A stretch of DNA of 47,561 nt from a phage: the sequence record PZ324410.1. One strand, written 5' to 3'. The notes under the pieces were generated by a model. It ran no database searches, was not told the DNA's origin, and saw only the letters and a list, made by a program, of their open reading frames with translations. The translations under genes were made by a program, and so were the position numbers. This document shows, piece after piece, positions 2,181 through 20,026 of the stretch. The number at the start of each line of letters is the position of its first letter. The stretch's first letter is position 1.

Positions 2181-2345
2181 ATGATGATTATTGAAAAAAC
2201 AAATGAATGCCACAGTCTGTATATAAATACAGAACTAGTAATAAATTTAAGGCAATGCGACGACTGGGTTCAGCTTGACAAACACCAAGCCGTGCAGCTA
2301 ATCGAAGTTCTGCAACGCTGGGTTAATGGTGAGGAGATTGAGTGA
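2181..2345 (+). CDS. hypothetical small protein
   Basis: 54-aa ORF verified codon by codon; starts 2 nt after previous stop and its TGA overlaps next ATG. Confidence 0.4.
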   Translation: MMIIEKTNECHSLYINTELVINLRQCDDWVQLDKHQAVQLIEVLQRWVNGEEIE

Positions 2346-2551
2346 TGAGCGTTTATTTTTACTGTGGACACATAGAACGACAAGGCAGTACGGCTAGTGT
2401 TGGAAGTTTCTGTGGATTATCTATTGGCACTGATGCTGTTAGCGCATATGAGGATGCCATGAGAGCACAGGTGACAGAAATTCAGTCAATCACTGAAAGT
2501 GGTGCTTTTAATCTTTCTGTTATTTTTGATAGGTTCGAAAAGGTGGAGTGA
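2345..2551 (+). CDS. hypothetical protein
   Basis: 68-aa ORF; ATGA overlap with upstream ORF. Confidence 0.45.
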   Translation: MSVYFYCGHIERQGSTASVGSFCGLSIGTDAVSAYEDAMRAQVTEIQSITESGAFNLSVIFDRFEKVE

Positions 2552-2725
2552 TGGCACTATTCTGGTCGTTCTGGATTCCGTTTAACTTTATGTTCTAGTG
2601 GGCTATGGCTGCCAAGGTGAATAAACCAAGCAGGATACATTTCATGATTGCTTCATTTTTCGCTGTGGTGACTGGTGTTGTTCCATGCTTGTTGTATCAA
2701 TATTTCAAATAGAGGTGTGGCGGCT

Positions 2726-2965
2726 ATGATTTTTTTTCTTATCGTTATGGTGTTCATTGCTTATATGCTTGTCAGGAACAACGCGGTTGCTGACGCAAGC
2801 ATTGGGTTTATAAAGTTCTTCTATGAAGAAGACCCTGATGGATACGCAGCCGGAAAGCGATTTCATGAGGAACTACCAAGCTACGATGAGATGCTGTGGA
2901 AGTTCTGGGTGTGGCCTCTGTCAAAATTCTATCCGGCATACAGAAATAGAAATCGCAACAAGTGA
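2726..2965 (+). CDS. small membrane protein
   Basis: hydrophobic N-terminus IFFLIVMVFIAYML; AGAGGTG RBS 6 nt upstream of ATG. Confidence 0.5.
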   Translation: MIFFLIVMVFIAYMLVRNNAVADASIGFIKFFYEEDPDGYAAGKRFHEELPSYDEMLWKFWVWPLSKFYPAYRNRNRNK

Positions 2966-2975
2966 CCATGCTATA

Positions 2976-3001
2976 ATCCCTCCATCGTGAGGGATTTTTT
3001 A
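2976..3001 (+). terminator. rho-independent terminator
   Basis: atccctc...gagggat hairpin followed by TTTTTT. Confidence 0.55.
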
Positions 3002-3011
3002 TTGGTGACAT

Positions 3012-7317: not shown

Positions 7318-7458
7318 TCACTTAACATACTCAACAATTTCACACTCACGCATCTGCACCAGACCAAATGGCGCGACCAGCTTTCCGCATTTCATAACTT
7401 TGATCTGAGACAAATCGAATGCGGCGGTTTGTCCGGTGGTGAATTTTATGATTGCCAT
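7318..7458 (-). CDS. hypothetical small protein
   Basis: 46-aa ORF hand-translated (MAIIKFTTGQ...); below ORF-track cutoff. Confidence 0.3.
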   Translation of the reverse strand: MAIIKFTTGQTAAFDLSQIKVMKCGKLVAPFGLVQMRECEIVEYVK

Positions 7459-7519
7459 TATTCTGCGCTCCATATTGACCACCCATCTTTTTGCCAGTCA
7501 TGGCCCTTGTACCAATCGG

Positions 7520-7645
7520 TCATGTTGTAGCCCATTTCACAACCATGACGCCATTATGCATTTCAAAAAACTCATCACTGGTAAATCCCTGCGCCTTAAC
7601 TCTTTTCCCAGACTTCATTGCCTCGACAGCTTCTTCGTAAGTCAT
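7520..7645 (-). CDS. hypothetical small protein
   Basis: 41-aa ORF (MTYEEAVEAMKSG...); GAGGG RBS; first gene downstream of minus promoter. Confidence 0.35.
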   Translation of the reverse strand: MTYEEAVEAMKSGKRVKAQGFTSDEFFEMHNGVMVVKWATT

Positions 7646-7676
7646 ACCAAAACCCTCACTCGTTATTGATGTAGAT

Positions 7677-7705
7677 ACTATGCGCGACAATCCAATCTAC
7701 GTCAA
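7677..7705 (-). promoter_or_regulatory. sigma70-like promoter TTGACG-N17-CATAGT on minus strand
   Basis: read on reverse complement; -35 inside atctacgtcaa repeat. Confidence 0.4.
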
Positions 7706-7713
7706 TAGCTATG

Positions 7714-7722
7714 TGATAAAAT
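7714..7722 (+). promoter_or_regulatory. extended -10-like element TGaTAAAAT upstream of lysis cassette
   Basis: TGnTAnnnT-type element about 25 nt before endolysin ATG. Confidence 0.3.
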
Positions 7723-7745
7723 AATCTACATCAGGAGGTGAATTC

Positions 7746-8180
7746 ATGAAACTATCGCAACGCGGCATCGATTTAATTAAACAATTCGAGGGTTGCAGCT
7801 CGAAGGCGTATCCAGACCCCGCAACCGGAGGTGCGCCGTGGACTATCGGCTATGGCACAACCAAAGGCGTTAAGCCAGGAATGACCATCACCGCTGAGCA
7901 GGCTGAAAAGATGCTGCGCGATGATGTGGCTAAGTTTGAATCTGGCGTTTCTGCATTACTAAAAGTTCCGACCACGCAGGGGCAATTCGACGCAATGGTC
8001 TCGCTGGCATACAACATTGGCCTTGGTAATTTTGGCAAGTCAACACTGCTACGCAAGCATAACGAGAAATGCTATAGCTGCGCCGCTGGTCAATTCCCCG
8101 TATGGAATCGCGCTGCTGGCAAGGTTATGAATGGCCTGACCCGGAGGCGTAACGCAGAGCGCGACGTTTACATGTCATGA
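7746..8180 (+). CDS. endolysin, GH24 (T4-type) lysozyme
   Basis: FEGCSSKAYPD...WTIGYGTT catalytic Glu/Asp/Thr pattern; no N-terminal SAR/TMD. Confidence 0.8.
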   Translation: MKLSQRGIDLIKQFEGCSSKAYPDPATGGAPWTIGYGTTKGVKPGMTITAEQAEKMLRDDVAKFESGVSALLKVPTTQGQFDAMVSLAYNIGLGNFGKSTLLRKHNEKCYSCAAGQFPVWNRAAGKVMNGLTRRRNAERDVYMS

Positions 8181-8416
8181 AACGCCTCAGCAACTGGCTG
8201 CTCGGCGGGTGGATTTCGGTCTGCTCGCTGCTGCAAATCTGGCCTGAGTCGATGCTTTACGTGTGGGGTATGATGCCGGATGACCTGAAATCGGCGCTGC
8301 CTCCATTCGCTGTAAAGACTATCAGCTACTCCATTCTGCTACTCTCCATGCTCGGCAAGATGCATGCGATGAACAAGGCGAATAAGAGGTTGCGCGATGA
8401 TAAACCTGATTCGTGA
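8177..8416 (+). CDS. holin-like small membrane protein
   Basis: 79 aa, two hydrophobic segments and charged C-terminus; overlaps endolysin stop and spanin start. Confidence 0.5.
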   Translation: MKRLSNWLLGGWISVCSLLQIWPESMLYVWGMMPDDLKSALPPFAVKTISYSILLLSMLGKMHAMNKANKRLRDDKPDS

Positions 8417-8888
8417 TTACTGGCGACCACTGGCAATTATTATAATTGTTGCGTTCTGCGCGCTATGGGTGCGTAGTGAAATCATTGACTACGGCGACCA
8501 GCGATATGATGCCGGATACGCCAAAGCCATTGCCGAACAAAAAGAGGCAGATAAACGAGAGGAGCAACGCCGTGACGCAGAGAAACAAAAGATTCAGGCC
8601 GATGCGCAGCAAAGGATTGATGTTGCGCGCCGCGATGCTGCTGATGCTGCCGCTCGTGCTGATGGGGTGCGCAGAGAAACGGACAGGATACGCCAGCTCG
8701 CAGAGCAATATACCGGAACTCAGTCCGCTAGCGTATCAACCAGAAAGGTCATCGGTATGCTTGCCGAACTGTACGAAGCGAGCGAACGAGATTACCTTGC
8801 AGCGTCAACAGAAGCTGACAGGTATTACAACGCTGGATTGAGTTGTCAGCTTCAGTACAATTCATTGCGCAATAAAAAAGCCCCATAA
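8397..8888 (+). CDS. i-spanin (Rz-like)
   Basis: N-terminal TMD LAIIIIVAFCALWV followed by charged coiled-coil region; follows endolysin. Confidence 0.7.
   Translation: MINLIRDYWRPLAIIIIVAFCALWVRSEIIDYGDQRYDAGYAKAIAEQKEADKREEQRRDAEKQKIQADAQQRIDVARRDAADAAARADGVRRETDRIRQLAEQYTGTQSASVSTRKVIGMLAELYEASERDYLAASTEADRYYNAGLSCQLQYNSLRNKKAP
8602..8841 (+). CDS. o-spanin (Rz1-like lipoprotein), embedded in +1 frame of i-spanin
   Basis: signal peptide with lipobox LVLMGC; entirely inside 8397..8888 in another frame; start chosen at Met 22 residues before Cys. Confidence 0.6.
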   Translation: MRSKGLMLRAAMLLMLPLVLMGCAEKRTGYASSQSNIPELSPLAYQPERSSVCLPNCTKRANEITLQRQQKLTGITTLD

Positions 8889-8902
8889 AGGGGCTTTGTT
8901 TT
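8876..8902. terminator. rho-independent terminator
   Basis: aaaagcccc ataa aggggcttt hairpin then TTTT. Confidence 0.6.
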
Positions 8903-9050
8903 AAAGGTCATCAAGCCTGTCGACAATCTTGCTTCCGGCGCTCTCAAGGTCTTTATCATCAAAGCCATCAGCCCACGCCTGCTTGATACACTCCATTACC
9001 TGATTAAGCTCACCCTCAGTGAACTCAACAACATACTTTTTCTCTTCCAT
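8901..9050 (-). CDS. hypothetical small acidic protein
   Basis: ORF 8901..9146 trimmed to Met with GAGAGAGAA RBS. Confidence 0.4.
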   Translation of the reverse strand: MEEKKYVVEFTEGELNQVMECIKQAWADGFDDKDLESAGSKIVDRLDDL

Positions 9051-12533: not shown

Positions 12534-12715
12534 TGCGCAAGTATCAGTGCTACAGGTGCGGGGAGTCAAAGGATTGGTACAGATTTAATCCTGGTCAAAA
12601 ATATTGGATTAGAAAGTGTATTCGCTGCGAGCAATCGCCAGTGGGGTCAATGCCGGTTAGACAGGATTCATCTCACGTGTTTCATAGTCGCAAGATAATG
12701 AGGGTATGCAAATGA
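12533..12715 (+). CDS. small zinc-ribbon-like protein
   Basis: CYRCGE...CIRCEQ Cys pairs; GTGATG overlap with previous stop. Confidence 0.45.
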   Translation: MRKYQCYRCGESKDWYRFNPGQKYWIRKCIRCEQSPVGSMPVRQDSSHVFHSRKIMRVCK

Positions 12716-12858
12716 TTCCATTACTATGGATTACCGGAGCATACGCATTCTGTCGAGTGCTTAATGCCGATTCGCTTACTCACGTTGCTGCATATGGATT
12801 GCTTTTCTGCATGACTGGCGCGTTGCTTGCCTTCGCAGATGACGTTTTATCAGACTAA
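12712..12858 (+). CDS. small membrane peptide
   Basis: 48-aa hand-called ORF, hydrophobic; ATGA overlap. Confidence 0.3.
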   Translation: MIPLLWITGAYAFCRVLNADSLTHVAAYGLLFCMTGALLAFADDVLSD

Positions 12859-12912: not shown

Positions 12913-13035
12913 ATGTTCATAACTCAAATCATATTCTTCCTTTCACTTTCTGCCATCTATCCTTCCATTCTGTATCCTCTCGCCACGCTGTCGTGGTGCT
13001 TTATTGCTCTGTGGTATAATTCCGACACGAGCTAA
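12913..13035 (+). CDS. small membrane peptide
   Basis: 40-aa hand-called ORF with strong GGAGGTG RBS. Confidence 0.3.
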   Translation: MFITQIIFFLSLSAIYPSILYPLATLSWCFIALWYNSDTS

Positions 13036-19149: not shown

Positions 19150-19269
19150 ATGGGTTCAACAAACGGTCCGTCTCGTTCACGCGCTACTGGCAACACCAAA
19201 ACTGGCGGCAAAACTGGCGCAGTGAAGCCAAACGGCTCCACCCGTTCACCATCGCGCGGTAAGAAATAA
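19150..19269 (+). CDS. small basic Ser/Thr/Gly-rich protein
   Basis: 39-aa hand-called ORF; AGGAG RBS; TAATG coupling to next gene. Confidence 0.35.
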   Translation: MGSTNGPSRSRATGNTKTGGKTGAVKPNGSTRSPSRGKK

Positions 19270-19709
19270 TGTTCGGCGCAGATGTTGCCATCATGATCAT
19301 GTATGTGCTGGGATTCGCCTGCACTGGCATGATTGCGTTTCTGGTGTTCATTCCGGCAATGGTGATGTCTGTGTATCTTGGATGGGTGCTTGTTGATTCA
19401 TTTCCCGCCGAATATCTGTATTACCTTGCGCAGTCTATGATCTGGTTGTTTCCGGCTATTGCGCTGCGCAAAAGCACAAAGATGGCGCTCTGCGTGCTAA
19501 CGATGAGCCTTTACGAATGGCTGGTTGCGATAGAGTCATTCGTATGGGAATTTGTCACGCCTGTAGAAACGCCGCTTCATGCGCAGTACGCATTTATTAT
19601 TATCGGCATCCATCTGTTCATCCTTTCCATCACTTTTAAATGGGGCGGCGAAATTGGACATTATTCTTGGCGTGGTCGCCATCGTTTTTTCGCTGATTCA
19701 AATCTATAA
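19269..19709 (+). CDS. membrane protein
   Basis: 146 aa with several hydrophobic segments. Confidence 0.45.
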   Translation: MFGADVAIMIMYVLGFACTGMIAFLVFIPAMVMSVYLGWVLVDSFPAEYLYYLAQSMIWLFPAIALRKSTKMALCVLTMSLYEWLVAIESFVWEFVTPVETPLHAQYAFIIIGIHLFILSITFKWGGEIGHYSWRGRHRFFADSNL

Positions 19710-19741: not shown

Positions 19742-20026
19742 ATGAACGGAGCACTAAGACAAGTCGCAGAGCAGATTATAAGCGGGACGACAGGACAGGT
19801 GATTGATAAGGCTGGATATGCTTCTATTGGAACCGGCATCGGCCTGAAAGTTGCAGAGCAAACACCTGTCACGCAATCTTATTTTGAGGCTATGATTCCA
19901 CACGGCCTGACAGAGTGGGCGGCAGTAGCGTCAATCCTCGGCGCTCTGTCTCTGGTAATAAAGAACCTGTTTGAAATGTGGTGGAAGGTACGGGAGTCGA
20001 AAAAAAATGGCAGCACCAACACCTGA
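19742..20026 (+). CDS. hypothetical protein with C-terminal hydrophobic segment
   Basis: 94-aa ORF; overlaps start of neck gene. Confidence 0.35.
   Translation: MNGALRQVAEQIISGTTGQVIDKAGYASIGTGIGLKVAEQTPVTQSYFEAMIPHGLTEWAAVASILGALSLVIKNLFEMWWKVRESKKNGSTNT

Follow-up and report, generated by a model that had tools for sequence, protein, structure and literature searches.

A DUF7940 membrane protein as the predicted class II holin of an endolysin-first lysis cassette in an E1/Skate-like phage

Described relatives of the cassette

The lysis genes analyzed here have their closest described counterparts in the E1/Skate-like siphophages, whose genomes are 45-48 kb in length and which include Skatevirus, Segzyvirus, HC6, LPST49, swi2 and seszw. 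In Skate (gp15-gp19) and its relatives E1, seszw, LPSTLL, swi2 and HC6, the cassette has the same genome position and gene order as in the DNA under study, which is the 47,561-nucleotide phage sequence record PZ324410.1 and is called the window throughout. A search with 1.4 kb of the window (7600..9000) revealed 100% identity to Escherichia phage ECO95 1-6-1 (OR845258), an E1/Skate-like siphophage whose record was deposited without annotation. The small membrane protein of the cassette, termed ORF79 for its length of 79 amino acids, is 71-80% identical to its homologs in Skate, E1, seszw, LPSTLL, swi2 and HC6. The Skate homolog was named a class II holin in the Skate genome paper (PMC6606912), and the 71%-identical protein is annotated as a holin in the Skate record. 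For swi2, two membrane helices were predicted in the homolog by TMHMM, and a version carrying an N-terminal trigger-factor fusion, which was induced at 16 C and recovered in soluble form, had no lytic effect in what is the only published assay of a homolog (PMC8185280). However, the fusion design probably prevents membrane insertion, so this assay says little about holin function. Endolysin-first cassettes with permuted holin positions, as found here, have also been described for phiCbK-like Caulobacter phages (PMC3556154), although the proteins are unrelated to those of the window and the phiCbK endolysin is signal-anchored. Both the arrangement of the cassette and the assignment of its holin are already in the public record, and nothing about either is new.

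Other described systems share some of these features. Class II holins such as S68 of phage 21 resemble ORF79 in being small and in having two hydrophobic helices, a basic tail and cytoplasmic termini (the last being a prediction for ORF79), whereas the sequence of ORF79 shows no detectable link to a Pfam holin family. As a pinholin, S68 is paired with a signal-anchored endolysin. The endolysin of the window is soluble and, unlike in the case of phage 21 S68, would therefore require large holes. LysA of phage P2 is encoded between the endolysin K and the spanins LysB/LysC and has four membrane helices, and P2 carries a separate holin, Y, upstream of its endolysin. The ORF79 gene likewise lies between endolysin and spanins, but its product has two helices, and the window cassette has neither an upstream holin nor a second gene for a non-spanin membrane protein. 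By these features ORF79 does not fit the type of a LysA-like antiholin, a multi-helix protein that works alongside a holin encoded separately in its cassette. More distant 'holins' that belong, like ORF79, to the family DUF7940 are gp39 of BcepNazgul, gp08 of Acinetobacter phage D0 and gp58 of Xanthomonas phage Suba, which share 30-37% identity with ORF79 over the helices and the loop motif and also adjoin an endolysin. Unlike ORF79, these three are encoded upstream of the endolysin and are preceded by a coiled-coil protein with one membrane helix, and BcepNazgul gp39 has a third, N-terminal membrane helix where ORF79 has two helices in all.

Organization of the lysis region

Four lysis genes occupy positions 7746..8888 on the plus strand of the window, with minus-strand genes on either side that match PHROG families. 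The order is a soluble GH24 endolysin, then ORF79, then Rz with an embedded Rz1, and finally a terminator. The endolysin, ORF79 and Rz genes overlap: the ATG of ORF79 overlaps the endolysin stop codon as ATGA, and the final 20 nt of ORF79 overlap the start of Rz, which has its own AAGAGG. We read the region as an ordinary and self-contained operon for late lysis, comprising endolysin, predicted holin and Rz/Rz1, in a phage of a known group.

The intergenic gap 5′ of the endolysin is 55 nt long. A putative control region on the plus strand (7712..7738), as read from the sequence, consists of the extended -10-like element TGTGATAAAAT at 7712..7722 and the Shine-Dalgarno sequence AGGAGG at 7733..7738, the latter ending 7 nt ahead of the endolysin ATG. 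HC6, LPST49 and Skate share this conserved block, and we infer that the TGTGATAAAAT element could act as a promoter; a consensus promoter scanner made no call at 7712..7738, where a -35 match is absent. A 10-nt inverted repeat that flanks the promoter region was considered as a regulatory element and was rejected, as it is not conserved in relatives. At the distal end of the operon, a G+C-rich hairpin, AAAGCCCC-loop-GGGGCTTT, with flanking A and T runs (8877..8897) was called as an intrinsic terminator by a scanner on the minus strand, and a terminator is annotated at the corresponding place in Skate. Because A/T runs are present on both sides, the hairpin is probably a bidirectional terminator that closes both the cassette and the convergent leftward genes.

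The endolysin (7746..8180, plus strand, 144 amino acids) is of the T4/P22 type and matches the Pfam family Phage_lysozyme (PF00959) over its full length (E 2.9e-47, residues 12-138), as well as phrog_7 'endolysin' (E 9e-59). The protein starts straight with its catalytic domain, in a manner distinct from the pinholin/signal-anchor-release arrangement of the phage 21 type. No hydrophobic segment was found at the N-terminus, where Kyte-Doolittle values are below 0 across the first 50 residues, and a TopPred-style scan of the protein gave zero membrane segments. Judging from the endolysin sequence, ORF79 does not belong to a system in which a pinholin is paired with a signal-anchored endolysin. 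A soluble endolysin needs a prior membrane lesion to act, and since this enzyme lacks a signal-anchor, it too would need such a lesion to reach the cell wall.

The spanin genes complete the cassette. The Rz-type i-spanin (8397..8888, plus strand, 163 amino acids) matches PF10721 (DUF2514, E 9e-15) and phrog_312 'Rz-like spanin' (E 5.5e-39). Its membrane helix lies near the N-terminus, at residues 9-31, with a Kyte-Doolittle peak of 2.26, and the TopPred-style scan gives one membrane segment in Rz. The periplasmic domain is charged and of the coiled-coil type. The +1 frame of Rz contains the embedded gene for an outer-membrane lipoprotein, the Rz1-type o-spanin (8572..8841, plus strand), which has the lipobox LVLMGC and a match to phrog_11621 'Rz-like spanin' (E 1.2e-23). 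Its start is a GTG after GAGGAG, with an alternative ATG at 8602, and is homologous to the start that the Center for Phage Technology (CPT) annotated for Rz1 of Skate. The pair therefore has the makeup of an embedded two-component spanin, namely an i-spanin with an N-terminal helix and a lipobox lipoprotein in another frame.

An earlier note on this DNA had described much of the cassette in the same way. Its GH24 endolysin without signal-anchor and its embedded Rz/Rz1 pair are borne out by the family matches, the N-terminal helix and the lipobox given above, and the positions that it reported for the sole small membrane protein of the cassette, between the endolysin and Rz/Rz1 and overlapping both, are confirmed. 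It had also stated that nothing holin-like precedes the endolysin, and indeed no plus-strand gene is located upstream, the neighbors being minus-strand genes with PHROG matches. One plus-strand open reading frame at 7436..7669 was rejected as an upstream holin, being antisense to two PHROG-supported genes and matching no family.

ORF79 and the DUF7940 family

ORF79 (8177..8416, plus strand) matches the Pfam family PF25612 (DUF7940) with 33.5 bits, against a gathering threshold of 27, and phrog_13249 'holin' with an E value of 2.5e-44; a weaker match is to phrog_1356 'holin' (E 1.6e-6). We consider ORF79 a real gene because a tblastn search gave homologs in 219 phage records, with full-length ones in 207, and because two independent family models match its product. 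When 1.8 billion representatives were searched exhaustively with a profile, only 35 clusters were returned, and the family is therefore small. All 41 relatives that we aligned match PF25612, with a best E value of 6e-21. Against the characterized Pfam holin families (Phage_holin_*), ORF79 yielded zero matches at E values up to 1, and the 41 relatives yielded a single sub-threshold hit (E 0.026). NCBIfam holds no model for the family, a profile search of the PDB gave no relative of ORF79, and a Foldseek comparison of its AlphaFold2 model with viral structures gave nothing at E <=0.001, as expected of a helical hairpin. Full-text searches of the literature turned up no paper that names DUF7940. 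By these comparisons ORF79 is a member of DUF7940 / PHROG 13249 and of no experimentally characterized holin family.

Two helices are predicted in the product of 8177..8416 by three approaches, which upholds its description as a membrane protein in the earlier note. Helix A spans approximately residues 6-22 (up to 32 in the model) and helix B approximately residues 44-60, with the acidic loop PDDLKSALPP between them. The Kyte-Doolittle profile has two segments with peaks of 1.2 and 1.5, a modest hydrophobicity that counts against a holin. In a TopPred-style scan with the GES scale, the two peaks (1.33 and 1.16) exceed the 'certain' cut-off. TMHMM results have been published for homologs (PMC6606912, PMC8185280). 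The AlphaFold2 model, built from a 41-sequence alignment, is a helical hairpin (residues 3-32 and 43-74) that turns at PDDLKSALPP and has a mean pLDDT of 80. A simple sum on the Hessa scale gave positive values in most members of the family, and we set it aside as evidence. The C-terminal tail of ORF79 (residues 61-79, KMHAMNKANKRLRDDKPDS) contains 6 basic and 3 acidic residues. A dual-start motif is absent from ORF79, in which the next methionine past M1 is residue 26.

These features recur across the family. Among the 41 aligned members, the hydrophobic segments fall in the same columns, with mean hydropathies of 1.45 and 1.70, and mean net charges are +1.4 for the N-terminal flank, -1.8 for the loop and +2.9 for the C-terminal flank, defined as the first 15 residues past helix B. 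This charge pattern fits a location of both termini in the cytoplasm, which is the predicted class II topology. Several DUF7940 relatives, for example BcepNazgul gp39, have an extra N-terminal membrane helix that is compatible with the same orientation. The loop motif is the best conserved part of the family, and P23, W30, P34, K38 and P42 are invariant or nearly so.

The genomic setting of ORF79 also points to a role in lysis. Its homologs are present in approximately 200 phage genomes and are located between the endolysin and Rz/Rz1 in every related record inspected, and in all of the related cassettes inspected the protein is the sole membrane protein other than the spanins. The enzyme of the cassette can vary: GH24 is intact in the window, HC6 and LPST49, whereas in Skate, seszw and LPSTLL the GH24 gene is cut to a 92-aa remnant and a lambda-R-type transglycosylase is found in its place, with ORF79 and Rz/Rz1 kept. 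Because the enzyme is swapped while ORF79 and the spanins are kept, ORF79 travels with the cassette and not with a particular enzyme.

A similar trend is evident in more distant phages. Close and distant DUF7940 members together adjoin endolysins in 12 independent contexts inspected. They lie downstream of a GH24 enzyme (the window and L008), of a lambda-R-type transglycosylase (Skate, seszw and LPSTLL) or of a PF11860 muramidase (L009/L010), and upstream, where a holin gene is usually found, of a transglycosylase in BcepNazgul, an M15-like peptidase in Suba, a PF11860 muramidase in L011 and GH24 in L016. In Acinetobacter phage D0, DUF7940 is upstream of an enzyme that was read by eye from the sequence as chitinase/GH19-like. 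Linkage to five unrelated endolysin types, in either order, is behavior typical of a holin gene. A second membrane protein is nearly always present in the distant DUF7940 cassettes. Directly upstream of DUF7940 in D0, Suba, L016, L011, L018 and BcepNazgul is a coiled-coil protein with one membrane helix, and those of D0, Suba and L016 are homologous to one another; L019 has multi-helix proteins upstream. In L010, a phrog_1350 'holin' is upstream of the muramidase, and DUF7940 is at the position that LysA has in phage P2. Searches of the window by tblastn with the partner proteins (Nazgul40, Suba57, D0_09, L011_99, L010_117 and DUF1378) revealed no homolog. An assignment of the partners to XhlA or LydA was considered and not made, as the hints were sub-threshold only. 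It is thus possible that DUF7940 in distant phages works as one half of a pair.

Retention in seszw offers a further view of the gene. In the deposited records, no sequenced seszw genome lacks the homolog of ORF79 (gene 77), even among mutants that have been reduced from 45.9 to 36.5 kb, and at >=99% identity it is found in 71 seszw records, with 70 for the large terminase. This retention is consistent with an essential role of ORF79, but other small membrane genes are likewise retained in seszw mutants, and the pattern does not discriminate between candidates.

The predicted holin and its alternatives

Holins are normally assigned from membrane helices and cassette position (PMC3556154). ORF79 has the properties listed in that work, since it is small, has at least one membrane helix and a basic, charged C-terminal domain, and is clustered with an endolysin. 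We regard it as probable that ORF79 is a canonical holin of class II topology that releases the soluble endolysin, and it is close to certain that the protein is a lysis-cassette membrane protein of some kind. The earlier note had left two alternatives, a holin between the endolysin and Rz/Rz1 or one of several small membrane proteins encoded elsewhere. The former is the better supported, on account of the helices, the basic tail, the linkage of DUF7940 to endolysins and the Skate annotation. The same note had called this placement non-canonical, a description that we would drop, as an endolysin-first order with the holin downstream is the rule in approximately 200 genomes of this group and had been described before (PMC3556154).

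If ORF79 is the holin, lysis could proceed as follows. A single transcript would begin just upstream of 7746 and its genes would be translated in series, with the ATGA junction coupling ORF79 to the endolysin and the 20-nt overlap coupling Rz to ORF79. The overlaps are evident in the DNA, and the coupling is proposed. Because the endolysin has no export signal, the folded enzyme would build up in the cytoplasm. ORF79 would insert in the inner membrane as a helical hairpin, with the MKR N-terminus and the basic C-terminal tail in the cytoplasm and the acidic loop (P-D/E ... W ... P-D-D-L-K ... P-P) in the periplasm. After accumulating, it would trigger and open holes big enough for the endolysin, and would not act as a pinholin. 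The endolysin would then degrade the cell wall, and the Rz/Rz1 complex would disrupt the outer membrane; this spanin step of lysis is established in general.

The strongest alternative is a 94-aa membrane protein whose gene (19742..20026) opens the head-tail adaptor operon; it was absent from the candidates of the earlier note. If this protein, or less plausibly another one outside the cassette, were the true holin, then ORF79 would be an accessory regulator, either an antiholin or a holin partner. Such a division of labor would accord with the second membrane protein of nearly all distant DUF7940 cassettes and with the P2 LysA-like arrangement of L010. The gene for the 94-aa protein belongs to the core of the group, with 205 phage records compared with 207 for ORF79, and is never lost in approximately 70 seszw genomes. 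The protein combines a single strong membrane helix with a basic tail at the C-terminus, and its glycine-rich segment, GQxIDKAGYxSIGTG, is invariant. The 'holin' label is attached to its homologs in one UniRef entry and, among phage records, in at least that of Klebsiella phage ZCKp20p. Nevertheless, we consider this explanation unlikely. Members of the 94-aa family are never seen adjoining an endolysin and have no relatives outside the E1/Skate-like group, and the protein matches no Pfam or NCBIfam model and no holin-labelled PHROG, falling instead in phrog_13738, which is labelled 'membrane protein' only. When its family was compared by hhalign with DUF7940 and with the partner family, probabilities were below 1%. 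Moreover, identity between the window and Skate is 94% for the 94-aa protein, a level similar to that of the neighboring structural genes, compared with 53-71% for the more diverged lysis genes (71% for ORF79), and the CPT annotators called the 94-aa homolog a 'membrane protein' and the ORF79 homolog a holin. A more specific version of this alternative holds that DUF7940 is a lysis-timing partner and not the hole-former, and that it works with a second membrane protein that varies between lineages. In E1/Skate-like phages this would be the protein of 19742..20026, approximately 11 kb away, as the second component of a split two-locus holin system. The conserved loop motif of DUF7940, P-D/E-x6-W-x3-P-x-D-L-K-x3-P, would be periplasmic in such a partner, and we judge a split system of this type to be quite improbable. 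At stake in the choice is whether DUF7940, a widespread family that owes its 'holin' label to position and membrane helices alone, would become a verified holin family, or whether the hole-former lies elsewhere in approximately 200 phages.

Other locations for the holin are even harder to reconcile with the comparative data. Of those named in the earlier note, 2726..2965 has no homolog in Skate or seszw, and its product therefore cannot be the holin of the group. The product of 19269..19709 has four membrane helices, but most viable genome-reduced mutants of seszw, the smallest among them, lack its homolog, gene 20 (PMC9825161), which makes this protein dispensable; at >=99% identity, gene 20 is found in 22 records compared with approximately 70 for the large terminase. 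The two remaining candidates, 12712..12858 (48 amino acids) and 12913..13035 (40 amino acids), are upstream of the head genes. Both have hydrophobic segments in the TopPred-style scan, both are conserved in Skate and seszw (52-65% identity), and all seszw genomes have kept the region that holds them (70 records, >=99% identity). However, the charged C-terminal tail typical of holins is missing, as one product ends in the acidic DDVLSD and the other is almost devoid of charged residues. The longer product matches phrog_18423, which has no known function, the 40-aa product matches no family, and both genes are within an early or middle block far from the lysis genes. It is very unlikely that either is the holin. 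We give equally little credence to the view that no dedicated holin is needed and that ORF79 has some other role. That the endolysin reaches the cell wall by itself was concluded by the authors of the swi2 study, in which both 'lysins' cut the host titer by approximately 1 log whether expressed inside or added outside, and the fused 'holin' was inactive (PMC8185280). However, these effects are small and were read after 16 h from 48-kDa trigger-factor fusions, the window endolysin has neither a signal nor a signal-anchor sequence, and the ORF79 family stays linked to endolysins of five types.

With ORF79 as the predicted holin, the holin gene follows the endolysin gene, a departure from the usual order that is a permutation specific to the lineage. 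We know of no functional consequence of this order. The value of the assignment is small beyond a correct annotation of the cassette, and for the record of ECO95 1-6-1 the four genes can be labelled by homology as endolysin, predicted holin, i-spanin and o-spanin.

Endolysin exchange within the lysis cassette

The relatives Skate, seszw and LPSTLL carry, in a region homologous to window 7746..8180 (2276-3008 in locus L001; 1772-2504 in locus L004), a GH24 endolysin gene of which only a 92-aa remnant is left, comprising the first 10 and the last ~75 residues; behind this remnant a gene for a lambda-R-type transglycosylase has been inserted. The GH24 gene is intact in HC6 and LPST49, as it is in the window. 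In the three phages with the remnant, the endolysin has clearly been swapped in place, leaving the holin and spanin genes untouched.

The G+C content of the lysis cassette (7746..8888) is 52%, compared with 45.5% in the whole window, a compositional excess consistent with a mosaic module subject to horizontal exchange. In LPSTLL and seszw, an inserted HNH endonuclease gene also lies just 3′ of Rz (3802-4302 in L001; 44745-45245 in locus L014), and none is found at this position in the window.

The region upstream of the endolysin

Across four phages, conservation of the intergenic region at 7660..7745 is 88%. Within it lie an extended -10-like element, TGTGATA(A/G)AAT, that would serve the lysis operon, and, pointing leftward, a promoter-like sequence, TTGACG-17-CATAGT; these motifs suggest divergent promoters placed back to back. 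A perfect 10-nt inverted repeat (7667..7676, TGATGTAGAT; 7724..7733, ATCTACATCA; spacing 47 nt) brackets this divergent promoter region 5′ of the endolysin. In HC6, LPST49 and Skate this right arm is not preserved, and the repeat is therefore probably incidental.

Membrane proteins outside the cassette

The main alternative candidate to the DUF7940 protein as holin is a 94-aa protein encoded at 19742..20026, which has one strong membrane helix, a basic tail and an invariant GQxIDKAGYxSIGTG segment. It is a core gene product of the phage group (205 records), and none of about 70 genome-reduced seszw mutants has lost its gene. The label 'holin' is given to a homolog by at least one phage record and by one UniRef entry. 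In one such mutant of seszw, seszw180S, the version of the 94-aa protein encoded by gene 21 (P0153) has unrelated sequence in place of the first 28 residues, with the membrane helix and tail intact, which suggests that the N-terminal part is dispensable.

The neighboring four-membrane-helix protein (19269..19709), a 'lipoprotein' in annotations of relatives, has a seszw homolog that is missing from most viable genome-reduced mutants (22 records at ≥99% identity versus about 70 for the large terminase), and the gene is therefore not needed for growth in the laboratory. It may serve in superinfection exclusion or be a gene of the moron type.

Second membrane proteins in distant cassettes

In distant phages whose DUF7940 gene lies 5′ of the endolysin, DUF7940 is preceded by a gene whose product, of 99-146 aa, combines a coiled-coil region with a single membrane helix (L005 1923-2363; L006 1576-1956; L007 1607-1981; L011 2700-2999; L016 255-659; L018 275-601). 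Three of these partners are homologous to one another (phrog_26164), and their architecture resembles that of XhlA-type holin partners, with sequence matches that are sub-threshold only. A metagenomic cassette (L010 2044-2397 and L009/L010 2402-4070) encodes a phrog_1350 'holin', a PF11860 muramidase, DUF7940, Rz (PF03245) and DUF1378; its endolysin is flanked by two holin-like genes, a layout that matches that of phage P2.
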